From a virus (taxonomy: Duplodnaviria; Heunggongvirae; Uroviricota; Caudoviricetes), in IMG/VR virus record IMGVR_UViG_2695420597_000017: DNA of 10,695 bases. The stretch is one strand, 5' to 3'. The notes under the pieces were generated by a model. That model ran no database searches and was not told the DNA's origin. It worked only from the letters and a program-made list of their open reading frames with translations. The position numbers and the translations under genes were made by a program. Below, piece by piece: positions 1 to 10,695 of this stretch. Numbering within the stretch: the first letter of the stretch is position 1; each line of letters begins with the position of its first letter.

Positions 1-1119
1 TCAAATAACCAACTTAACCCATTCCTGACCTCGAGTATCGTTATAGCGATCGGTGGTTGCCTGGACTTTATGTCCTAGTAATGTTTTTGTATCGATACCC
101 TGTGCACGGTACAGCCGTTCTGATAGAGAGCGTTGTTCATGAAATGTTGGCGGAGTTTTTCCTGCTGGTGGAATTATCCCAGCCAGATCCCGTGCTTTGG
201 CAAAGTAGTCGCTCAGGTTGTCTTTACTCATCGGCTTCGGTTGTTTCTGGTGCCGACTATGGATTAGATATGGACTTAATATTCTGTCTCGGCACCCATC
301 AATAACTTCTTTTAACGTTATCCCAATGGCATCACAGCGTAGTGTAAGCGGTAACGCCAGACGCATTCCGGTTTTTCCCTGGGTGATATGCAAGTGTTCG
401 TTCCACACATCTGAAAAACGCATGTGGCAAATGTCATCACGGCGCTGACCAGTAACAATCGCAAGAAGCATTGCGTTACGGATAAAGTGTTTTTCAGGCG
501 TTGCATTGTAAATTTTTTGCCAGTCTTCCATGGTGAGCCTGGCTCTGGTTACTTTAGGGATCGGTTTACGGGTAGCCTCCGGAGGATTCCATCCAGGAGG
601 AACTTCCCCTGCATGCTGTGCTTCTTTATAAATATCAACCCATAATCCACGATTTACTCTCGCTGTGCTGACCATGTCTTTATCCAGCCACTCATCCAGT
701 ATTAATGCAAAGTCTCTTACTTCCAGTTCTTTCAATGGGTGGTTTCCCAGACAGGAAACCAGGTATGCAGCCATTCGAGTTTTTTCTTTGTGAGTTGTAG
801 CTGCAATATCTCCATTTTTCAGTCGCGTGTCCTGTATTTTCAGATATCGACCAACCCATGCCTTTAATCTGATACCCCGACGTTTTGTTGCTGACGGACT
901 TTCATCAATTTTGCGCATGAAATATTCAGCTTCTGCTGCAGCTATTCGCTGATTGGCTGTGGAAGCGATTTTTTCTGCCTTACCTTTGTCTGTTCCGAGT
1001 CCGTGAAATTTTCCAGTCACAGGATTTTTATACTGGTAGTAAACTCTGCCAGTTCTGCGATCAAACTTTTCGTAAAGACCGGCTACGTCAGTGCTGTTTT
1101 TTCGTGGCCTCGGTGACAT
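1..1119 (-). CDS. int: Tyrosine site-specific integrase, lambda Int family (372 aa). ATG at 1119..1117, stop TGA at 3..1
   Basis: Full-length ORF in the six-frame track. C-terminal catalytic region HEQRSLSERLY...LLGHK...TDRYNDTRGQEW aligns by eye with the lambda Int R-H-R-Y region (HELRSLSARLY...LLGHK...YRDDRGREW). Its position beside an excisionase at the prophage end fits. No search run. Confidence 0.9.
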   Translation of the reverse strand: MSPRPRKNSTDVAGLYEKFDRRTGRVYYQYKNPVTGKFHGLGTDKGKAEKIASTANQRIAAAEAEYFMRKIDESPSATKRRGIRLKAWVGRYLKIQDTRLKNGDIAATTHKEKTRMAAYLVSCLGNHPLKELEVRDFALILDEWLDKDMVSTARVNRGLWVDIYKEAQHAGEVPPGWNPPEATRKPIPKVTRARLTMEDWQKIYNATPEKHFIRNAMLLAIVTGQRRDDICHMRFSDVWNEHLHITQGKTGMRLALPLTLRCDAIGITLKEVIDGCRDRILSPYLIHSRHQKQPKPMSKDNLSDYFAKARDLAGIIPPAGKTPPTFHEQRSLSERLYRAQGIDTKTLLGHKVQATTDRYNDTRGQEWVKLVI

Positions 1120-1357
1120 GAGTTAAAATCTCCTTCAGTGCATCATCATCGCCAGTATGAATTTCCGGCGCAATTCCCGTTTCACCAGGCCCAACAAATA
1201 CTGCTCGGCGATCTATCAGCCAACGCCCACGAATTTTTTGTGGTCTTGGAACGATGTATCCTAGTTTTCCGTATTTCACCAGGGTAGTGTTTGTTATTGG
1301 GAGACTGAACCGTTTTGGTTTCCACTCGTCGAGCGTTATCAGGTACTGTTCGCTCAT
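1088..1357 (-). CDS. xis: Excisionase (Xis-like), 89 aa from ATG at 1357..1355; the track ORF extends to a GTG at 1366
   Basis: Small basic ORF immediately upstream of int, overlapping it by 32 nt (typical xis-int overlap). Motif YLITLDEW...RRAVFV resembles the lambda Xis N-terminus (YLTLQEW). GGAG Shine-Dalgarno 9 nt upstream of the ATG. Confidence 0.7.
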   Translation of the reverse strand: MSEQYLITLDEWKPKRFSLPITNTTLVKYGKLGYIVPRPQKIRGRWLIDRRAVFVGPGETGIAPEIHTGDDDALKEILTHVTEATKKQH

Positions 1358-1418
1358 GGCTATCACTCCGGAACGCGCCAGTTGCAGAATATCAACGACA
1401 ACTGGCGACGGTTGAACA

Positions 1419-3890
1419 TTAAAAATCAGCCTGACTCGGGATCAGTTTTTGCCAGATAACTGAAACGTATTTTGCCTGGTAACGGGCGTCATCAAGTGCA
1501 TTATGGCGCTCACCTTCGAATGGAATAGCCGTTCTGGCATCGAAGTCTATGGCTTTCCCCAGCTCAACGATTGTGCGTACATCGCGATCGTTGTAGTAAC
1601 GCCACGGGCAGGGGATCCCCTGCCGTTCGTATGAACGGCGCAAAATCGTGTTGTCGAAGTTGGCTCCATTTCCCCAGACCTGAACAAAAAATTCACCGGA
1701 GTTTTCGTCGATAAATTCCCGCAATTGTAACAGTGCATCATCTAACGGGATTTCATCGGTCATAATGGCAGATTGCGCTTCGCGTGATTGCTTAAGCCAC
1801 CATTTAATGGTGTCCCGATCAATGACTCCGCCAGCAGTTTCCAGATCGATAGTCTTACTAAATTCCGGTCCCATATCTCCGGTTTGCGGATCGAAAAATA
1901 TTGCACCTATTGAGATGATCGGGGCATCAGGATTTTTTCCCATGGTTTCAAGGTCTATCATTAGATGGTCACACGTCCTGCTGGTGGATGTGATTACGTG
2001 ATGACCGTTCACCTTAATTGAGTGATCTGCCGTCTCGCCAGTTTCATTATCGCTATCGTGATGCTGATTGCCGCCAGTGTTCTCCTTGTGTGGATGTTCA
2101 GCGCCTTCCATTTCCTCCGGATCATCTTCCTGAACTTCAACCTGATACTCTTCATCGAATGTTTCCTGGTATGTTGCGTCGCCCATCACCGCGCCACAAT
2201 CAGGGCAGTTGCCGCCGCCGGTCTGACCGCAGGCGGTGCAGACTTTTTCCACTTCCTGTTGCGCCACTGGTTCAGGCTGTTTCGTTTCTGGCTCGTTTTG
2301 TAACGCATTTGGGCTGTTTTGTTCCGCTTTTTGGTAGTTCCGTTCCGATTCATGCTGGTTCTGGTTTACAGAATCGCGGGTCTGGATCCCCTTAACCCAT
2401 TTCGGATCATTCGGGTCGCTAATCCCTGCAACAAATTCTCCGCGAGAGGCAGCAAGCAACTTATCGGCGTCAGGCTGGCTGATATTGGCTGCCTGCATAA
2501 TTTTGTTTACTTCGTCAGCGGTAACTTTTACCGGCTCTGGTTGTGCGGTCGTGTCAGATGCACCAGTATTTTGTTGTGAACCTGAGTATGTACCGTTTTT
2601 GCGGGCGAAATATTCTTCTTTCGTGATTTCAGTAGCCCCTGCAGCCAGTGCCTTATCCAGACCAGAAAGTTTGTTTGCGCGACCGTATTTTTCGCTATCC
2701 TTGTCGGTGAAGAGGAAGTAGAACGGCCCTTCACGCTCTACAGATGGTTCGACTTCCACTTTGCATTCGGTTTTTTCGTTGTCCGGAATTGCCGTTTCCA
2801 CTGCATCAGTTTCTGGTACTGGCGACGAGAGAGTATCAGTTGCGCTCTGATTTCTTCCTTCATCTTCAAACACGCCCTTTGTAGTCAGGTATTCAGTAAT
2901 GTATTTGTTCAGTGCCACAGGGTCTTTGTGAATGTCGATCGGACGTTCACGGACAAGGCCAAAAATAGTCTGGCGGTCGTAGCGAAGGGCATCAGGCTGT
3001 TTGCGCATTGATGCCGAGATACGCTTCCAGTCTTCGCGGTCGTTGTCGATAACTTCATTTTTTGCCCAGCGATGGATGCTGCCGTCAATGTTTCCGGCAT
3101 CCACATCACCAGGCCAGAGAGCGTAGGCCAGTTCGTCATCCAGTGTTTTCCATGTCTGCTTGTATTCGCGATGAGTGGCAGCAATGACCGGGCTGATTTT
3201 TCCTGTTGAATTTTCAGTGTTCTGTTGATTGGCTCTGGCGCGGGCGAGATCAACAACAGACGTGTATTTTCCAGTCTCTTTGCGCTCTGCGTCCTGCCGT
3301 TTTTTCCAGTTACGTAATTCAGCCTGAATTTCGGGCCATTTGGCACCCGGATTACATTTGTGTTTAACCCATCCGATAGCGAACAGTTTGCGTTCCGGAT
3401 ACATAGCGTTAATTTCAGGCGTTTTCATCAGTGCTTCAACGATATGCCCGTCAAAGGTAGCAACGTCTTCCTGCAGTAATTCCTGCGCGTCAATCGCCAT
3501 ATCAACGGTGATGTTTTCACATGTACCGAACTTAACCAGGACCGCGTTCTGTACTTCAAGGGACAGCTTGTCAAAATTGACGTTCATCGGATCGGATTCT
3601 GGTTCGACCGGAATAAAGGAAGCGGATTCCTCATCCCAGCGGTTTTCCTGCATATATTCAGCATCCCAGGAATCGAGGGCAGGGCGGGGTATACCGGGTT
3701 TATCCTCGCAGACAAGAAATTTATAAGCGCAGTCCTGAGCAGCCGGATAATGTTCCAGGAATTGCCAGTGAAATTTTGCGCGGGCGCGACGTTCATCACC
3801 GGCTTCAATGGCAGTGGCTACAGCGACGGCACCTTCTTCCTTTATTGCCTGTTCGTCCGGAATGGCGGCGCAAATAAAGACTTTACTCAT
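1419..3890 (-). CDS. Large multidomain protein (823 aa) with C-terminal DnaQ-like DEDDh 3'-5' exonuclease domain; proteins of this kind are often annotated as exodeoxyribonuclease VIII-like in lambdoid prophages
   Basis: Long uninterrupted ORF with ATG at 3890 and a GAGGT Shine-Dalgarno upstream. The C-terminal ~190 aa carry exonuclease motifs Exo I (MIDLETMG), Exo II (VWGNGANFD) and Exo III (HNALDDARYQ). The central acidic/Q-rich linker contains a CxxC-x9-CxxC zinc-ribbon-like motif (CTACGQTGGGNCPDCG). The N-terminal ~330 aa are of unrecognised function. The gene sits where lambdoid phages carry recombination functions (between xis and the pL-operon genes). Confidence 0.8.
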   Translation of the reverse strand: MSKVFICAAIPDEQAIKEEGAVAVATAIEAGDERRARAKFHWQFLEHYPAAQDCAYKFLVCEDKPGIPRPALDSWDAEYMQENRWDEESASFIPVEPESDPMNVNFDKLSLEVQNAVLVKFGTCENITVDMAIDAQELLQEDVATFDGHIVEALMKTPEINAMYPERKLFAIGWVKHKCNPGAKWPEIQAELRNWKKRQDAERKETGKYTSVVDLARARANQQNTENSTGKISPVIAATHREYKQTWKTLDDELAYALWPGDVDAGNIDGSIHRWAKNEVIDNDREDWKRISASMRKQPDALRYDRQTIFGLVRERPIDIHKDPVALNKYITEYLTTKGVFEDEGRNQSATDTLSSPVPETDAVETAIPDNEKTECKVEVEPSVEREGPFYFLFTDKDSEKYGRANKLSGLDKALAAGATEITKEEYFARKNGTYSGSQQNTGASDTTAQPEPVKVTADEVNKIMQAANISQPDADKLLAASRGEFVAGISDPNDPKWVKGIQTRDSVNQNQHESERNYQKAEQNSPNALQNEPETKQPEPVAQQEVEKVCTACGQTGGGNCPDCGAVMGDATYQETFDEEYQVEVQEDDPEEMEGAEHPHKENTGGNQHHDSDNETGETADHSIKVNGHHVITSTSRTCDHLMIDLETMGKNPDAPIISIGAIFFDPQTGDMGPEFSKTIDLETAGGVIDRDTIKWWLKQSREAQSAIMTDEIPLDDALLQLREFIDENSGEFFVQVWGNGANFDNTILRRSYERQGIPCPWRYYNDRDVRTIVELGKAIDFDARTAIPFEGERHNALDDARYQAKYVSVIWQKLIPSQADF

Positions 3891-3985
3891 TTTGTTTTAA
3901 CCTCATTACAGATTTCAGGGTGAACGAATCCCTGCCATTGCTGGCATTTTTAATCCGTTGGTATGGCGTTAATATGGCTGGCGGG

Positions 3986-4174
3986 TTATCCAGCCGGTAT
4001 TTCGTTATTCAGGTTCAGCGATACTTTTTTTAACGGGAGGCATTCACCGGGGATTTTTTGTTCGTCCCTTACCTGAATGCAGGATGACTTACTGTCATAA
4101 ATTCCGGTAATCACATTTTGTGGCTCACCCGTTATAAGAAAAACGGTCATCACCAGTGCAAATGCTGAAGTCAC
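3986..4174 (-). CDS. ydfD: YdfD-like small protein with N-terminal hydrophobic segment (62 aa, GTG start)
   Basis: ORF directly downstream of dicB with a GTGA start/stop overlap, suggesting translational coupling. GGAG Shine-Dalgarno 7 nt upstream of the GTG. The N-terminus (SAFALVMTVFLITGEP) is hydrophobic and the C-terminus ends EIPAG, which resembles my recollection of Qin prophage YdfD. Not verifiable here. Confidence 0.5.
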   Translation of the reverse strand: MTSAFALVMTVFLITGEPQNVITGIYDSKSSCIQVRDEQKIPGECLPLKKVSLNLNNEIPAG

Positions 4175-4359
4175 TGCTGTTCTCCGATAATACCAAGTTC
4201 AAGAAGGGCAATTCTGGAAAGTATGGAATTATCATTGAGAAGATAAGGTTCATATTTTCTCATCTTAATGGCATCTTCCGTAAACTCCCGGTTACTGAGC
4301 AGAACACCAATATCAAAACAACCTTCAGACGTATTAACGTTTGGTAATAACGTTTCCAT
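4171..4359 (-). CDS. dicB: Cell division inhibitor DicB homologue (62 aa)
   Basis: ATG at 4359..4357 with a GAGGA Shine-Dalgarno 7 nt upstream. Protein METLLPNVNTSEGCFDIGVLLSNREFTEDAI... closely matches my recollection of Qin prophage DicB (MKTLLPNVNTSEGCFEIGV...). It lies immediately downstream of a DicF-like sRNA, as in the Qin dicB operon. The track ORF 4171..4464 is an upstream GTG extension that I consider unlikely. Confidence 0.75.
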   Translation of the reverse strand: METLLPNVNTSEGCFDIGVLLSNREFTEDAIKMRKYEPYLLNDNSILSRIALLELGIIGEQQ

Positions 4360-4528
4360 TATCGCGTCCTCAACAATGAATTTTGTGATGCAGTGCCTGG
4401 TGCCTCCAGGTGACGTTAACCAGTTAACAATTAACGCCGGATACAGAGAGTCCACCCATAACACTGTTTTTGGTTTTAACTGTTCCGCGTGCGCTGAGCC
4501 GCATTCACCGCATCACAAAATTCACTTT

Positions 4529-4571
4529 AAAAACGGCGGCAGAGCAGTCACGGAGTAAAACTGATACCGCC
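4529..4571 (-). terminator. Intrinsic terminator hairpin forming the 3' end of DicF
   Basis: On the minus strand, GGCGG (complement of 4571..4567) pairs with CCGCC (complement of 4539..4535), with an inner CAGU/ACUG helix, followed by a U5 tract (complement of 4533..4529). Confidence 0.5.
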
Positions 4572-4586
4572 AAACGTCACCAGAAA
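4534..4586 (-). ncRNA. dicF: DicF small regulatory RNA (about 53 nt; antisense regulator of ftsZ and other mRNAs in E. coli)
   Basis: The minus strand reads UUUCUGGUGACGUUUGGCGGUAUCAGUUUUACUCCGUGACUGCUCUGCCGCCG followed by UUUUU, which matches my recollection of K-12 DicF almost base for base. It sits between ydfC-like and dicB-like genes as in the Qin prophage. Exact ends are processing sites and cannot be fixed from sequence. Confidence 0.75.
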
Positions 4587-4926
4587 ATTGATAACAGAGG
4601 GCGTTGCAGCGGGGTTGTCACTTAAGCGTATGGTCAACCTGACAACTCGGTGTCCTCAACGGGGAAGGAATAACCCCGCCATACTTACCGCCGCGCCATT
4701 TCGCGGGTTGCCACAACCGGAAGCGCACGGTCGACGAAAATTTAACGACAGGCTATCTATGAACCAGCTACCTCGCCGTGCGCTTTCGCGTTATGGTCTG
4801 ACTTTTCAGGGAAATATCCTTTCAGTAAACTGTCAGTGCCGGATGCTCACCCGTGTCCGGCGCACGCACTCCACCTCACCCGTGGAGAATTCCTTAATTA
4901 CCAACCTTAGCTTCGTTGGTTAGCTA

Positions 4927-5145
4927 TTAACGCGGGTATGTAATCATTCTGGCAATGCTTAATGCCGCTGCTTTTTCCAGATTGGTGATATCCTGCTCCA
5001 GAGCGGACAGATTTTCAGCCTGCTTAGCCCTGGCTTCATTAGCCCATTTCAGATCCTGCGCTGCATTAATTTTCTGGCGCATCCACTCATAAAGTTCATC
5101 ATCGGTATAGTCTGGCGCGATTATGACGGGTTCTCGTTTCTGCAT
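4927..5145 (-). CDS. ydfC: YdfC-like small protein (72 aa)
   Basis: ATG at 5145..5143 with a GAGGA Shine-Dalgarno 7 nt upstream. Size and position (third gene of a ydfA-ydfB-ydfC-dicF-dicB array) match Qin prophage YdfC. Sequence identity is not verified. Confidence 0.6.
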   Translation of the reverse strand: MQKREPVIIAPDYTDDELYEWMRQKINAAQDLKWANEARAKQAENLSALEQDITNLEKAAALSIARMITYPR

Positions 5146-5174
5146 ACTGATTCCTCGCGGTGCTACTTCGCTTA

Positions 5175-5303
5175 TCAGCCGTTAGATTTTGCCGAGCTGG
5201 AAAGCGCCTGTTTAAACTCACTGAAGCTGAGAGCTTCTTCGCCTTCGGCAAGGTCTTCGAAGTATTCTTCGTAAGCCTTTTCCATGATTGTGTCGAAATC
5301 CAT
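5175..5303 (-). CDS. ydfB: YdfB-like small protein (42 aa); not in the supplied ORF track because it is below the length cutoff
   Basis: My own translation of the minus strand from ATG 5303..5301 gives MDFDTIMEKAYEEYFEDLAEGEEALSFSEFKQALSSSAKSNG with stop TGA at 5177..5175. An AGGTGA Shine-Dalgarno lies about 6 nt upstream. The ATG is 1 nt after the ydfA stop (tight coupling). Acidic small protein of YdfB size and position. Confidence 0.6.
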   Translation of the reverse strand: MDFDTIMEKAYEEYFEDLAEGEEALSFSEFKQALSSSAKSNG

Positions 5304-5304
5304 A

Positions 5305-5460
5305 TCACTCACCTGAGTTTCTTTCCAGCCAGCGACGGGCACCATTTTCGGTTTTAAACGTTTTGCTTTTGGTATACGTCATCGCGGTGAACGTACCGTC
5401 CTGGTTGGGGAACACGCCACATACCAGAGATTCGCTGTTGCCAAGATCGATAGTATCCAT
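5305..5460 (-). CDS. ydfA: YdfA-like small protein (51 aa, DUF1391-like); the track ORF 5305..5547 is a possible 80-aa N-terminally extended form
   Basis: Internal ATG at 5460..5458 has a GAGG Shine-Dalgarno at 6-nt spacing and gives MDTIDLGNSESLVCGVFPNQDGTFTAMTYTKSKTFKTENGARRWLERNSGE (51 aa, the K-12 YdfA size). The upstream ATG at 5547 has its GAGG only 3 nt away. Confidence 0.6.
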   Translation of the reverse strand: MDTIDLGNSESLVCGVFPNQDGTFTAMTYTKSKTFKTENGARRWLERNSGE

Positions 5461-5644
5461 GCTGACCTCATTTCCCCTTAACGCTGGGGTAGCGGAACTA
5501 AAAACCTGCTGCGCTGTTATACAAAGTGTTCCCGCCGTCATGTTCATACGCCTCGGGCTGGCTACTTACCCCCTGACCACTGCTTGGTAACTCGAAGTAT
5601 TGCCCGGCGTTCTGTGGGGCGGGGTGGGTTGGTATGTTGTTAAG

Positions 5645-5681
5645 GTAACAAGAGTTACCTTTCGAGTCAATACAATGTTGC
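5645..5681. promoter_or_regulatory. Predicted left operator/promoter region (OL/pL-like): one perfect-armed GTAAC-N4-GTTAC site (5645..5658) and a degenerate site 23 bp away (5668..5681, sharing CAATGTTnC with the OR site at 6408..6421)
   Basis: The same inverted-repeat motif recurs twice between cI and cro. A TTGACT -35-like hexamer on the minus strand (complement of 5669..5664) sits next to the operator. No convincing -10 could be assigned, so the promoter call is tentative. Confidence 0.4.
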
Positions 5682-5702
5682 AAAAGGTACGTTTGAGGGC
5701 AT

Positions 5703-5725
5703 AAAAAACCCGCAATGAATGCGGG
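5703..5725 (-). terminator. Rho-independent terminator downstream of cI
   Basis: On the minus strand, a stem CCCGCA/UGCGGG with a 6-nt loop (plus-strand 5709..5725) is followed by a U6 run (complement of the A6 at 5703..5708). It lies 8 bp past the cI stop codon (5735..5733). Confidence 0.6.
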
Positions 5726-5732
5726 TTCTGAC

Positions 5733-6407
5733 TCAGTCTAAGTATTGATGTATTTGTGAAACTTTACCTTTAATGGTGTAACCACCATTCAGTTCGATGG
5801 GTTTGTAAAGCGGATTCAGTGACAACAGATAGATGTTTGGTCCGTCAATCGCAACTTTTTTTAGTGTTACGTTTGGCGTTCCTTCCAATTGGATTAAGAT
5901 TATTTTTCCCACCAGTTCTCTAATGTTACTTGAGCATGGTGTGATCAGCACGGTAGATCCGTCGGGGATGGTTGGGAGGCCGTTAGAGTTTGTCATCGCA
6001 TCTCCCTCAACATGCAATAAAAAAGAGTTTTCAGCGGTTTTTGTCATGACATCAACCCAATTCTTAATACCAGGAATCTCGGTTACTGGACAACTCATAT
6101 CCCAATAACCAGCCTGTTCCCACGTTAAAACGGGCAACCGGGCGATGTTGTCACTAATGTAAGGGTACTGATTCAGACGCAGATCATCGGCTTTATCGTG
6201 ACCGTCCTTTCCATAAAGAATCCATTCAGGAGATTTGGAAAGCAATTTTGACAGTAGATACAAATTCTCACCGTCAGGTTTTGAAGAGCCATTTTCCCAT
6301 TTTGTTACGGATACACGAGATATGCCGATTGCTTTCGCAACCTGCTGTTGGGTTAATCCAACGTCTTTTCGACGATTCCGAATACGTTCGCTGATAGTGT
6401 TTTTCAT
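5733..6407 (-). CDS. cI: CI-type prophage repressor: N-terminal XRE-family HTH plus C-terminal S24 (LexA-like) peptidase domain, 224 aa from ATG 6407..6405. The catalytic-serine position is Ala
   Basis: HTH region LTQQQVAKAIGISRVSVTKWENG. Ala-Gly candidate cleavage site in EQAGYW. The S24 motif reads LLHVEGDAMT...VTLKKV, where lambda CI has EGNSM and LexA has GMSM; the conserved Lys is present in LKK. The gene is divergent from cro with an operator-bearing intergenic region. The track ORF starts at an upstream TTG (6506) that would overlap the cro Shine-Dalgarno; ATG 6449 or 6407 is more plausible, and I chose 6407 so that the operators fall outside the CDS. Confidence 0.85.
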   Translation of the reverse strand: MKNTISERIRNRRKDVGLTQQQVAKAIGISRVSVTKWENGSSKPDGENLYLLSKLLSKSPEWILYGKDGHDKADDLRLNQYPYISDNIARLPVLTWEQAGYWDMSCPVTEIPGIKNWVDVMTKTAENSFLLHVEGDAMTNSNGLPTIPDGSTVLITPCSSNIRELVGKIILIQLEGTPNVTLKKVAIDGPNIYLLSLNPLYKPIELNGGYTIKGKVSQIHQYLD

Positions 6408-6498
6408 GTAACCAATGTTACTACCAAGTGATGTTGCTATGGTTGACATTGTTATGTAACTATTGTTACCCTTCTGCTCGAAATAACAGGAGAGTTTT
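6408..6498. promoter_or_regulatory. Divergent cI/cro promoter-operator region (OR/pR/pRM-like) with GTAAC-N4-GTTAC operator sites at 6408..6421 and 6456..6469, 48 bp centre to centre, and a possible weak middle site near 6432..6446
   Basis: Two near-identical imperfect palindromes (GTAACCAATGTTAC and GTAACTATTGTTAC). The spacing is twice the ~24-bp operator period typical of lambdoid OR. A TTGACA -35-like hexamer sits at 6443..6448. The cro Shine-Dalgarno AGGAG is at 6489..6493. Confidence 0.5.
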
Positions 6499-6714
6499 AT
6501 GTTCAAAGATGATGTTCTGCGCTATTTCAAAAAAAAGCGACTAGTAGCTGAGGCTCTTGGAATTTCACATGTGGCTGTTGTGCGGTGGAAAGCAGTTATT
6601 CCCAAACTTCGCGCAATGGAACTGGATGAAATTACTAACGGTGAATTGAAATACAACCCAGAACTTTACAAGAAGCAGGATAGCACCTCAAACGAAGGAA
6701 AGAATGATTCATGA
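6499..6714 (+). CDS. cro: Cro-like repressor (71 aa), P22 Cro-like HTH
   Basis: ATG at 6499 preceded by AGGAG at 5-nt spacing. Protein MFKDDVLRYFKKKRLVAEALGISHVAVVRWKAVIP... resembles my recollection of P22 Cro (MYKKDVIDHFGTQRAVAKALGISDAAVSQWKEVIP...). Divergent from cI. Confidence 0.85.
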   Translation: MFKDDVLRYFKKKRLVAEALGISHVAVVRWKAVIPKLRAMELDEITNGELKYNPELYKKQDSTSNEGKNDS

Positions 6715-7136
6715 AAATCAAGCATGAACACATCCGCATGGCGATGAATGTCTGGGCGCATCCGGACGGCGAAAAAGTGCCGGCTGCGAAAATTACCAAA
6801 GCGTATTTCGAGCTGGGAATGACGTTCCCGGAACTGTATGACGACAGCCATCCGGAAGCCCTGGCCCGTAATACCCAGAAAATTTTCCGTTGGCTGGATA
6901 AAGACACCCCTGATGCTGTTGAAAAAATGCAGGCTCTGTTACCGGCGATCGAAAAGGCGATGCCGCCTTTGCTGGTGGCCCGTATGCGCAGCCACAGTTC
7001 TGAATATTACCGTGAGATCGTCGAACGGAGGGATCGGCTGGTGAAGGATGTCGATGATTTTGTTGCGTCAGCGGTTGTTTTGTATGACCAGATGAATCGC
7101 GGCGGCCCGGCAGGGAATGCTGTGGTGATGCACTAA
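6711..7136 (+). CDS. ydaT: YdaT-like protein (141 aa), occupying the cII position; YdaT-family proteins are reported as CII functional analogues in Rac/CP-933P-type prophages
   Basis: ATG overlaps the cro stop (ATGA at 6711..6714). The N-terminus MKIKHEHI... and the ~140-aa size match my recollection of the YdaT family. The position directly after cro in the pR operon fits. Not verified by search. Confidence 0.65.
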   Translation: MKIKHEHIRMAMNVWAHPDGEKVPAAKITKAYFELGMTFPELYDDSHPEALARNTQKIFRWLDKDTPDAVEKMQALLPAIEKAMPPLLVARMRSHSSEYYREIVERRDRLVKDVDDFVASAVVLYDQMNRGGPAGNAVVMH

Positions 7137-7158
7137 AAGCACGGTGTTCGGGGGTTTT

Positions 7159-8121
7159 ATGAGCAGCAAGCTTCATGGTCTTGTCTGGGAAGGGTGCGCC
7201 TTCACCGGCATGATCTTATCCAGGGTGGCGGTTATGGCCCGTCTTGCAGACTACAGCAATGACGAGGGTGTGTCATGGCCTGCCATTGAAACTATCCGGC
7301 GTCAGATCGGTGCAAGAAGTGAATCCACAGTGAAATCGGCTATTGCAGAACTGGCGAAAGAGGGCTGGCTGACGAAGGAAGAGCGTAAGGTCGGTGGGCG
7401 TAATGTAAGCAATATCTATCGGCTTAATGTGGAAAAACTCGAAGCAGCTGCGGCGGCGGCGCGTGAGTCATATAAACCGAAAAGAAAAATTAGCCCGGCA
7501 AAAAATGACCCGTTAACAGTTGACCCGTCAAATATTGACCCCTCAACGGTTGACCCGTCAAATTTTGATGGATCAACTGTTGATAAAAAACTGCCGATTA
7601 GGGGGGCGATGATTGACCCCGATCCGTCAGTATTAAAACCTGATCCGTCAGATAAAAGATCTTCTTGTCCGGACGCTTCGCAACCGGACCCGCAGACGGC
7701 TGAACAGGATTTTTTAACCCGACACCCTGACGCGGTTGTGTTCAGTGCGAAAAAACGCCAGTGGGGAAGTCAGGAAGATTTGGTGTGCGCACAGTGGATC
7801 TGGGGACGAATCGTGAGTCTTTACGAGCAGGCGGCCAGCTATGATGGCGAGATCACTAGACCGAAAGAACCCAACTGGACAGCATGGGCCAATGACGTTC
7901 GCACAATGCGGATGCTGGATGGCAGAACTCACAGACAAATTTGTGAAATGTTTGGGCGTCTCCAGCGGGATTCGTTCTGGGTAAAAAACATCATGAGTCC
8001 GGCAAAACTCCGGGAAAAATGGGATGAACTGGTTATCCGCCTGGGGCGTTCGCCTGCGCAGCGTTGCGTGAATCACATTTCTGAACCGGACACTGAAATA
8101 CCGCCGGGATTCAGGGGGTGA
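7159..8121 (+). CDS. Replication initiator / replisome organiser (lambda O-like), 320 aa from ATG 7159; an alternative GTG start lies at 7144
   Basis: N-terminal winged-helix-like region (AVMARLADYSNDEGVSWPAIETIRRQIGARSESTVKSAIAELAKEGWL). The internal peptide repeat TVDPSNIDPSTVDPSNFDGSTVD is encoded by 15-bp DNA iterons, as for lambda ori inside gene O. A DnaC-type helicase loader follows directly. GGGGG Shine-Dalgarno before ATG 7159. Confidence 0.8.
   Translation: MSSKLHGLVWEGCAFTGMILSRVAVMARLADYSNDEGVSWPAIETIRRQIGARSESTVKSAIAELAKEGWLTKEERKVGGRNVSNIYRLNVEKLEAAAAAARESYKPKRKISPAKNDPLTVDPSNIDPSTVDPSNFDGSTVDKKLPIRGAMIDPDPSVLKPDPSDKRSSCPDASQPDPQTAEQDFLTRHPDAVVFSAKKRQWGSQEDLVCAQWIWGRIVSLYEQAASYDGEITRPKEPNWTAWANDVRTMRMLDGRTHRQICEMFGRLQRDSFWVKNIMSPAKLREKWDELVIRLGRSPAQRCVNHISEPDTEIPPGFRG
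7506..7580. repeat. Iteron array (putative replication origin): five direct repeats with 15-bp period, followed by an A-rich tract (7585..7590) and degenerate further copies to about 7650
   Basis: The motif TGACCC(G/C)T recurs at 7506, 7521, 7536 and 7551, with a degenerate unit at 7566. The units at 7520..7531 and 7550..7561 are small palindromes (TTGACCCGTCAA). The array is embedded in the O-like gene. Confidence 0.6.
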
Positions 8122-8127
8122 CGTGTC

Positions 8128-8802
8128 ATGAAAAACATTGCGGCAGTTGGGGTTCTTGAACGTATTCGCAGACTTGCACCACAGGGGTCGGTTCCACCGT
8201 ACCGGACGGTGGAGGAGTGGCGGGAATGGCAACTTGCTGAAGGACGAAAACGCAGCGAGGAGATTAACCGCCAGAATCGCCAGTTGCGGGTGGAAAAAAT
8301 CCTGAATCGTTCGGGCATCCAGCCTCTGCACAGCAAATGCTCGTTTGCGAATTATCAGGTGCAGAACGACGGGCAAAAATACGCGCTGAGCCAGGCCAAA
8401 TCCATAGCTGACGAACTGATGACCGGGTGCACGAATTTTGTGTTCAGCGGTAAAACCGGCACCGGGAAAAATCACCTTGCAGCGGCGATGGGCAACCGGC
8501 TGATGGTGAAGGGGCGCAGCGTGATTATCGTCACCGTGTCTGACGTCATGAGCGTGTTGCATGACAGCTACGACAACGGCAAATCCGGGGAAAAATTTTT
8601 ACAGGAGCTTTGCGGGGTTGATTTGCTGGTCCTGGATGAAATAGGCGTTCAGCGGGAGACGAAAAACGAGCAGGTGGTATTGCACCAGATAATTGATCGC
8701 CGGACAGCATCACTGTGCAGTGTCGGGATGTTAACAAACCTGAATCATGACGGTTCCACCGTACCGGACGGTGGAGGAGTGGCGGGAATGGCAACTTGCT
8801 GA
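8128..8802 (+). CDS. DnaC-type (IstB-like AAA+) replicative helicase loader, 5' fragment (224 aa): reads through duplication copy 1, then runs out of frame into copy 2 and ends after 17 aberrant residues
   Basis: Walker A GKTGTGKNHL and Walker B LLVLDEIG. ATG 8128 with GGGGGTG Shine-Dalgarno, 6 nt after the O-like stop. The C-terminal 17 aa (DGSTVPDGGGVAGMATC) are a frameshifted read of the duplicated N-terminal DNA. Confidence 0.7.
   Translation: MKNIAAVGVLERIRRLAPQGSVPPYRTVEEWREWQLAEGRKRSEEINRQNRQLRVEKILNRSGIQPLHSKCSFANYQVQNDGQKYALSQAKSIADELMTGCTNFVFSGKTGTGKNHLAAAMGNRLMVKGRSVIIVTVSDVMSVLHDSYDNGKSGEKFLQELCGVDLLVLDEIGVQRETKNEQVVLHQIIDRRTASLCSVGMLTNLNHDGSTVPDGGGVAGMATC
8189..8750 (+). repeat. 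Tandem direct duplication, copy 1 (562 bp)
   Basis: Sequence 8189..8749 is repeated at 8751..9311 (offset 562). I saw about 6 substitutions in the stretches compared (e.g. GGC/GGT, GTG/GCG, GTG/GAG, GAC/GAT, GGG/GGT, GTT/ATT). Confidence 0.85.
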
Positions 8803-9436
8803 AGGACGAAAACGCAGCGAGGAGATTAACCGCCAGAATCGCCAGTTGCGGGTGGAAAAAATCCTGAATCGTTCGGGCATCCAGCCTCTGCACAGCAAAT
8901 GCTCGTTTGCGAATTATCAGGTGCAGAACGACGGGCAAAAATACGCGCTGAGCCAGGCCAAATCCATAGCTGACGAACTGATGACCGGGTGCACGAATTT
9001 TGTGTTCAGCGGTAAAACCGGCACCGGGAAAAATCACCTTGCAGCGGCGATGGGTAACCGGCTGATGGCGAAGGGGCGCAGCGTGATTATCGTCACCGAG
9101 TCTGATGTCATGAGCGTGTTGCATGACAGCTACGACAACGGCAAATCCGGTGAAAAATTTTTACAGGAGCTTTGCGGGGTTGATTTGCTGGTCCTGGATG
9201 AAATAGGCATTCAGCGGGAGACGAAAAACGAGCAGGTGGTATTGCACCAGATAATTGATCGCCGGACAGCATCACTGTGCAGTGTCGGGATGTTAACAAA
9301 CCTGAATCATGCCGCAATGAGCACGCTTCTTGGTGAGAGGATTATGGACCGCATGACCATGAACGGTTGTCGGTGGGTGACGTTTAACTGGGATAGCTGG
9401 CGTTCAAATGTCAGCTTTCCGGGAGTTGTGAAGTAA
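8747..9436 (+). CDS. DnaC-type helicase loader, 3' fragment (229 aa): starts at an ATG at the duplication junction and lacks the first ~20 codons of the gene; carries the authentic C-terminus
   Basis: 95% of its length is near-identical to ORF 8128..8802 (3 amino-acid differences across the repeat). It then continues with NHAAMSTLLGERIMDRMTMNGCRWV..., giving the DnaC/YdaV-size protein once a single copy is assumed. No Shine-Dalgarno precedes ATG 8747. Confidence 0.6.
   Translation: MTVPPYRTVEEWREWQLAEGRKRSEEINRQNRQLRVEKILNRSGIQPLHSKCSFANYQVQNDGQKYALSQAKSIADELMTGCTNFVFSGKTGTGKNHLAAAMGNRLMAKGRSVIIVTESDVMSVLHDSYDNGKSGEKFLQELCGVDLLVLDEIGIQRETKNEQVVLHQIIDRRTASLCSVGMLTNLNHAAMSTLLGERIMDRMTMNGCRWVTFNWDSWRSNVSFPGVVK
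8751..9312 (+). repeat. Tandem direct duplication, copy 2 (562 bp)
   Basis: See copy 1. The unit length is not a multiple of 3, so the duplication shifts the reading frame by +1. Confidence 0.85.
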
Positions 9437-9457
9437 TTTTTGTTGGAGGATGTTTTA

Positions 9458-10183
9458 ATGGAAACTGTATTTGACGCACTGAAAGCACTGAAAAGAGCCT
9501 CTTCACATGTGGTGGCGTCCCGCCTTGGAATCAGCCGTGAAGATGCGGTCAACGAACTGTGGAAACTGAAGCGCCGTGGTGAAGCGGATAACAAGGGTTC
9601 GATGTGGTGGCTGATTCAGGCTGGTGAAAGTGAACCAGTGTCACCGGTACCGAAAGTGACAGCGCAAATGCTGACTGAGGCGATTGAACAACATGGCCCA
9701 CAAACGGCGGATGAGCTGGCACTGATGTTCGGGATTACCTCCCGCCGGGCGAATTCATCGCTGGCCATGGCAATCAGCAAAGGGCGTCTGATTCGCGTGA
9801 ATCAGGGCGGTAAATTTCGGTACTGCATACCGGGCGCTGATTTACCGGCAGAGCCGAAAGCCGCATCCATAGCGGAAACGGATGGTAAAGTCTTTCCTCA
9901 GCCAGCAGGTGTTGCGTTACCGGTACAGGAAGCTGCAACACAGGAAGAAATTAAAACAGAAACTGTGGCGGACATTGTGCAGTCGTTGCCATCGTTCACC
10001 GAAACGCAAGCGGATGACCTGGTTTTACCATCGCTGCATATGGCAAACCGCGAACTGCGTCGGGCGAAAAGTCATGTCCAGAAGTGGGAGCGTGTCTGCG
10101 CCGCGTTGCGGGAGCTGAACAAGCACCGGGATATTGTTCGACAGATTGTCGATTCCTCCGTTCGTATTGTGTCGGAAAAGTGA
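9458..10183 (+). CDS. Hypothetical protein (241 aa from ATG 9458) with two tandem winged-helix-like segments
   Basis: GGAGGA Shine-Dalgarno 7 nt upstream of ATG 9458; the track ORF starts at an upstream TTG (9440). Segments [25 protein letters not shown] and [29 protein letters not shown] look like wHTH recognition units. In-operon position downstream of the helicase loader. Confidence 0.6.
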
Positions 10184-10198
10184 TTGCCGGGGGCGCTT

Positions 10199-10621
10199 AT
10201 GGCAAAAGTATTTACACAGGAAGAGCGGGAAAAAATTAAGGGGCAGGTTGTTGAACTCGTACGCCAGAGTGGGCGCGAGACGTTACGACAACTGGAAGCT
10301 AAAACCGGGGCGACAAGATATTTAATAAGCGTTCTCGCCAGAGAGCTGGTTGCCAGTGGGGATGTATACAACTCTGGCTACGGGTTATTCCCGTCTGAAC
10401 AGGCTCGTAAGGACTGGCAAAACGCCCGCAAAAAACTCTCGAGGGCAAAGCTGAAGAAACCATCTGTGGTTGATCCGGACCTTATCTGGTCATTACCGGA
10501 CGGAGAAATACGCCGCTACGACAGACATCAGAACATAATCTGTCGCGAGTGCCGGAAGAGTGAAGTTATGCAGCGTGTACCGGCTTTCTATCAGGGTGAT
10601 TTTCAGGAGGCGGTACTGTGA
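10199..10621 (+). CDS. Hypothetical protein (140 aa from ATG 10199), N-terminally similar to the preceding protein (wHTH-like), C-terminal CxxC motif
   Basis: GGGGG upstream of ATG 10199. N-terminus MAKVFTQEE...RETLRQLEAKTGATRYLISVLARELVASGDV parallels METVFDAL...[20 protein letters not shown] of the upstream gene. C-terminal CRECRK. Confidence 0.55.
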   Translation: MAKVFTQEEREKIKGQVVELVRQSGRETLRQLEAKTGATRYLISVLARELVASGDVYNSGYGLFPSEQARKDWQNARKKLSRAKLKKPSVVDPDLIWSLPDGEIRRYDRHQNIICRECRKSEVMQRVPAFYQGDFQEAVL

Positions 10622-10678
10622 GTGAAATTAGCTATCAGGCTTCAATTACCGCTGGCATTCGCATCAAAGGAGAGGAGC

Positions 10679-10695
10679 ATGGAAATAAAACCAGA
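10679..10695 (+). CDS. 5' end of a further rightward gene (truncated by the window edge)
   Basis: ATG at 10679 preceded by AAGGAG at 6-nt spacing. Only 5 codons (MEIKP) are visible. Confidence 0.25.

Follow-up and report, generated by a model that had tools for sequence, protein, structure and literature searches.

The question raised by this locus is whether a phage helicase-loader gene that appears partly repeated and broken in two is a genuine lesion of a prophage or a product of genome assembly. A sequence-only reading of the window (the whole stretch of DNA analysed here, 10,695 nt) had described a 562-bp tandem duplication that splits a DnaC-type loader gene into two overlapping, frameshifted ORFs, and had taken it for a real inactivating lesion of the replication module or, as a fallback, for an assembly collapse of two alleles. 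Our analysis indicates that the tandem duplication is almost certainly a false duplication flanking an assembly gap, in which pieces of two different loci were butted against each other across a one-base N.

Two direct copies of 561 nt each are found at positions 8189–8749 and 8751–9311 (both on the + strand), with one spacer base between them at 8750. They lie where the sequence-only reading had placed them and, as it had noted, differ by six substitutions (copy 1 sites 8493, 8507, 8537, 8544, 8589 and 8647) with three amino-acid changes (V127A, V137E and V174I). All six sites fall inside 155 nt, leaving 304 nt at the start of the unit and 102 nt at its end without any difference; a seventh mismatch (8750/9312) is the spacer base itself and stands outside the 561-nt unit. 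The length of 562 nt given for the unit needs correction, since it is made up of 561 nt plus the spacer base; 561 is divisible by 3 (3 × 187), so that the frameshift is due to base 8750 only. When this base is deleted in silico, a single open frame of 435 aa is obtained. Both split ORFs are present as described: the 5' ORF (8128–8802) codes for 224 aa, i.e. 207 native residues followed by 17 out of frame, and the 3' ORF (8747–9436) codes for 229 aa. The ATG at 8747, supposed to have been made by the junction, is native sequence that recurs at 9309–9311; the spacer merely puts it in frame. The junction string reads ...CTGAATCATG, one base, then CGGTTCCACC..., the last letters to the left of the spacer being AATCATG and the sequence to its right beginning with CGGTTCCACC. 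A repeat of 561 nt cannot reasonably be a chance match of strings, yet it describes the assembly file and not demonstrably the genome.

The window corresponds to the last 10,695 nt of CXEY01000002.1, a record of 73,864 nt from a draft assembly of Shigella sonnei (GCA_001258915.1). Over these 10,695 nt, window and record differ at a single position, 8750, where the window has A and the record has N. Among the 19,277 nt of CXEY01000002.1 that were read, no other position is anything but A, C, G or T, and this N sits exactly between the two copies. Position 8750 is therefore a placeholder base, a one-base scaffold gap between two contigs, and the junction does not exist as determined sequence in the source record. 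A lone N located exactly where one direct repeat gives way to the next indicates a scaffold join and not a sequenced junction; from it we infer that no reads spanned the junction. The gene calls of CXEY01000002.1 carry the same pair of 224 aa and 229 aa, and these split genes are spurious. Exact-protein look-ups of the two split ORFs (224 aa and 229 aa) gave no match, probably because the record's own products would carry X at the N.

The locus changes at the N. To its left, positions 1–8749 constitute a first scaffold piece, which is a lambdoid (Rac-like) prophage adjoining potC (prophage P). Its gene order is integrase, excisionase, 823-aa exonuclease, DicB, LexA-like repressor, Cro, YdaT, replisome organizer and loader gene positions 1–622 (the annotated context was taken from L001, an E. 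coli prophage). Four sister assemblies in which the exonuclease allele and the chromosomal surroundings are the same (L021, whose accession series, CXEI, neighbours that of the source record, and L022, L023 and L024) match this piece with 1–4 mismatches (99.95–99.99% identity), and the alignment stops exactly at 8749. All four run on as ...AATCATG followed directly by TCGCAATG..., and have a single 747-nt loader gene (intact, 248 aa) and then a gene for a 256-aa DUF1627 protein. In a fifth sister, L026, the contig breaks off within the loader, which is the usual behaviour of assemblers where a sequence recurs elsewhere in the genome. Within the same piece, the DicB frame on the minus strand (4171–4464) extends over 97 aa, starting at a GTG; DicB is called as 97 aa in the source record and in L005 and as 62 aa in most relatives, which is probably a matter of start-codon choice and not a different protein.

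To the right of the N, positions 8751–10695 (1,945 nt, up to the contig end) form a second scaffold piece, which contains loader positions 62–747, the gene for a 241-aa DUF1627 protein and a DUF977 gene, and which belongs to a cryptic prophage remnant of S. sonnei (remnant S). This piece shows 1 mismatch in 1,945 nt against L014, L016–L018 and L020, 1 mismatch in 1,902 nt against L019 (the contig of which ends earlier) and 2 mismatches against L012, whereas its identity to P-type prophages, L021–L024 among them, is only 96% and then falls to 85%. Remnant S assembles as a 5–10 kb contig in many S. sonnei assemblies; its genes are those for ParE/PaaA2, a repressor, YdaT, a different organizer, the loader, the 241-aa DUF1627 protein, DUF977 and a restriction-modification pair. 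Its loader is always single and intact (248 aa), with one copy in L014–L020. The exact DUF1627 protein of the window (9458–10183) is rare, being present in 3 contigs, CXEY01000002.1 among them. The two copies are not derived from one locus with continuous flanks: the left one is P, and the right one, together with everything downstream of it, is S.

Two further features of this side of the window can be mentioned. The restriction-modification pair (N6_Mtase/Eco57I-like and BsuBI/PstI-like) is located just downstream of the replication module of remnant S, at 6512–9423 in L012 and 6302–8735 in L014. The window closes, at the contig end, with 97 nt (10599–10695) that are 100% identical to segments of two E. 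coli prophages (L001 12489–12585 and L003 9832–9928), which lie ~1 kb further downstream there than in the window. A sister P prophage has 94% identity over the last 300 nt of the window and no exact match to the last 97. The possibility that the contig end at 10695 is another P/S repeat boundary was considered and not confirmed, the last 97 nt matching L001 and L003 and not the sister P prophage.

The boundaries of the copies were analysed by comparing the two alleles of the loader gene, with the L021 loader (potC prophage) as reference for allele P and the L014 loader (remnant) as reference for allele S. Over the 747 nt of the gene, P and S differ at 22 sites, namely positions 20, 21, 41, 61, 222, 366, 380, 410, 417, 462, 520, 623, 633, 679 and onward. 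The left piece of the gene (8128–8749, + strand; nt 1–622 of 747, codons 1–207), which is the genuine part of the 5' ORF, has the P state at every site save 222 and is otherwise the L021 loader. The right piece (8751–9436, + strand; nt 62–747), which is the 3' ORF minus its artificial start, has 0 differences from the S allele of L014. Both copies of the repeat cover gene positions 62–622, copy 1 in allele P and copy 2 in allele S, and P and S differ within this overlap at exactly the six substituted sites (366–520), apart from position 222, where the left piece has the S state. The overlap is bounded to the base by the P/S SNPs at 61 and 623: the left piece ends 1 base before SNP 623 and the right piece starts 1 base after SNP 61, so that the copies are the overlapping ends of separate pieces, cut at branch points between repeat copies. 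We estimate at roughly 1e-3 the probability that both ends would lie beside a P/S difference by chance (22 SNPs per 747 nt). Graph-based assembly or edge extension would be expected to end contigs at points of divergence, for which a biological duplication gives no reason. At the one discordant site, window position 8349 (gene position 222), the left P piece has G, the state of the S allele, in place of the A present in each of the 5 sister P prophages, which suggests consensus mixing of the two loci during assembly, gene conversion being less likely.

An old duplication, the copies of which would have diverged afterwards, was also considered, and was rejected: the six differences cluster in 155 of the 561 nt (P of about 0.007 by our calculation, assuming uniform mutation), and they are exactly those that distinguish two existing alleles, P and S.

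The distribution of the junction and of the two alleles was then examined in other genomes. The intact junction was present in 0 of 5,426 complete E. coli genomes, the loader gene itself being found in ~1,360 of them. A 1,351-nt query collapsed to 789 nt of the record, i.e. to one copy, in all of the matches listed, and a 181-nt junction probe gave, in complete E. coli genomes, only two-piece matches to both ends of single-copy genes. There was no match to the junction in phage, viral-contig and species-representative collections, with 0 occurrences of the exact pattern in the latter two; this pattern carried the A of the window and was blind to the N-bearing source record, so that it shows absence elsewhere only. 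The five S. sonnei sister assemblies retrieved are without the junction as well. Comparison with the loader of related prophages, a check proposed in the sequence-only reading, revealed one intact 747-nt gene in each, and the closest relatives of either piece (L021–L024 and L014–L020) are collinear with the window up to the gap and have the gene in single copy. In its variable segment, copy 1 shows 100% identity to the allele common in E. coli (679 E. coli records at 99% or above). For that of copy 2, no complete E. coli genome exceeds 98.5%, because this segment has the sequence of the S. sonnei-type allele.

A succession of ordinary assembly steps most likely generated this arrangement. The source genome holds two related loaders at two loci, P beside potC and S in the cryptic remnant, and the 561 nt that they share would not have been resolved by the assembler, the P contig entering the shared segment from the left and the S contig from the right. 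The P contig halts at gene position 622, and the 1.9-kb S piece begins at position 62. Read pairs within the shared segment probably linked the P and S pieces, a link that is presumably spurious, and a scaffolder or gap-filler probably abutted them without merging the overlap with its 6 mismatches. One N was left between them, and it appears in the window as A. This placeholder base accounts for the split ORFs, for the frameshift and for the ATG being in frame, and the real genome most likely has one intact 248-aa loader per locus. The claim of a real tandem duplication inactivating the loader, whether old or due to unequal recombination, is not supported, given the N at the junction in the record, the origin of the copies from two loci and the single-copy 747-nt gene of the relatives. 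The fallback, an assembly artefact involving two prophage alleles, was essentially right, although what took place was a scaffold join in which overlapping contig ends were not merged, and not a collapse.

The behaviour of assembly software could account for several of these steps. Between contigs whose estimated gap is negative and for which it detects no overlap, SSPACE writes a single n. Velvet merges short bubbles (≤100 bp) and does not merge long ones; bubble merging of this type, if it took place here, would explain that the difference at 222 was flattened and that the 366–520 cluster was kept apart. Had extension been halted by allelic differences, the six that lie inside the overlap (366–520) would have had to be phased in another way, and plausibly they formed one bubble too long to merge. 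GapFiller, to take one gap-filling program, extends both edges of a gap base by base, with a majority rule at allelic differences, and accepts a closure only when the two extensions overlap and the resulting length agrees with the estimated one (PMC3446322). A literature search for the accessions yielded nothing on the assembly pipeline. The model predicts that the same assembly would contain the complementary contigs, with an S-type head and a P-type tail; a look-up of the S-type organizer protein gave, among the matches listed (at most 10 places), none from GCA_001258915.1.

It seems improbable that the join is a real rearrangement in the isolate, either as an exchange between P and the remnant within the loader, with a hybrid replication module as its outcome, or, with much lower probability, as a staggered 561-nt duplication that breaks the gene. 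With the former, the link between the pieces would be genuine, and recombination inside the shared 561 nt would have produced a locus with P on the left, the S tail and its DUF1627 gene on the right and a single chimeric loader, the overlap having simply been left unmerged. Short k-mers cannot phase positions 520 and 623, which are 103 nt apart, and a crossover in 521–622 is compatible with the S tail; the S-state base at 8349 in the P piece could be a trace of gene conversion, and the join itself implies some read-pair support. However, read pairs in a shared repeat of 561 nt make spurious links, and both alleles of the 366–520 segment are present in the assembly, so that two copies of this segment exist anyway. 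Moreover, the sister assemblies with prophage P (five by our count) run on with a P-type tail, L026 ending inside the loader. We consider such a hybrid locus unlikely and, if it were true, the loader would still be single copy and intact, so that the duplication would fail in this case too.

A real 561/562-bp duplication, which would have arisen by an illegitimate join of two prophage alleles that broke the loader and left an uncallable base at the junction, has to be considered because the string is present in a public assembly and because its copies differ, which is not what a simple software copy-paste of one contig would give. It would nevertheless require three coincidences, namely that the junction is exactly where the sole N of 19.3 kb lies, that both copy boundaries coincide to the base with inter-locus SNPs (roughly 1e-3 by chance, as estimated above) and that the locus changes at the junction, everything to the right being the other locus up to the contig end 1.9 kb on. 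In addition, homologous exchange between alleles would yield one hybrid gene and not a duplication, and the junction is in no other assembly. We regard this explanation as extremely improbable.

The false duplication at an assembly gap, which we favour, belongs with a documented class of error described by Ko et al. 2022 (PMC9516828), that of duplications 'separated by an assembly gap', which arise when overlapping contig ends are left unmerged or when gap filling extends too far. It has in common with these the near-identical copies on either side of a gap character, the allelic differences between them, a junction unsupported by sequence, the single copy in close relatives and the spurious gene gain or frameshift in the annotation. 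It differs from them in that the copies are paralogues in two prophage-derived loci of one haploid genome and not diploid alleles, and in that the gap is a single N, hidden as a normal base by the preparation of the window. Genuine bacterial tandem duplications (by slipped misalignment or unequal crossing-over) also present as a head-to-tail repeat inside one gene, but they have a sequenced junction, usually with microhomology, and copies from one locus, whereas here there are an N, no microhomology and two loci. The case is a lesson in quality control only: a single-N gap silently made into a normal base mimics a frameshifting duplication with 'diverged' copies. In scans of draft assemblies, N positions should be kept or flagged, and direct repeats abutting them should be treated as artefacts.

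The identification of the gene as a DnaC-type loader was borne out. The reconstructed 248-aa protein matches Pfam PF01695 (IstB_IS21) with 70.3 bits (cut-off 24.1) and NCBIfam PRK12377 'ATP-binding protein' (NF009043) with 500.8 bits (cut-off 389) over residues 1–248 of 248; its translation contains a Walker A (GKTGTGKN) and a Walker B (LLVLDEIG) motif, as found in IstB/DnaC-type AAA+ proteins. With the DnaC equivalog NF005931, its score (300.7 bits) is under the cut-off of 357, in which it differs from host DnaC; the loader is a DnaC-like phage paralogue and not the DnaC orthologue of the host. It resembles the loader paralogues of Rac-like lambdoid prophages in being a single-copy 248-aa gene directly downstream of an iteron-bearing organizer, with Walker A and B motifs and a full-length PRK12377 match; YdaV of the E. 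coli K-12 Rac prophage presumably belongs with the same DnaC/IstB-type loader paralogues (PRK12377). The replisome-organizer gene upstream of the loader (7159–8121, + strand) is lambda-O-like, and its relatives are named 'phage replisome organizer'. Within it, at 7485–7583, there are approximately six 15-nt iterons, TTGACCCGTCAA-like and partly palindromic; by analogy with lambda O/ori, this array is probably the replication origin of the prophage.

Other states of the loader were encountered among the relatives. Two complete E. coli genomes have a damaged gene: in L005 (6970–7712; CP162059.1) a 4-nt deletion in an A5T5 run causes a frameshift, and in L011 (6970–7760; CP164482.1) the stop codon TAA is changed to AAA. 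These could be cases of real decay or of long-read homopolymer error. In two related E. coli prophages (L004 6001–7414 and L007 6001–7426), DUF977 comes immediately after the organizer, and there is neither a loader nor a DUF1627 gene; natural variants of the replication module without the loader exist.
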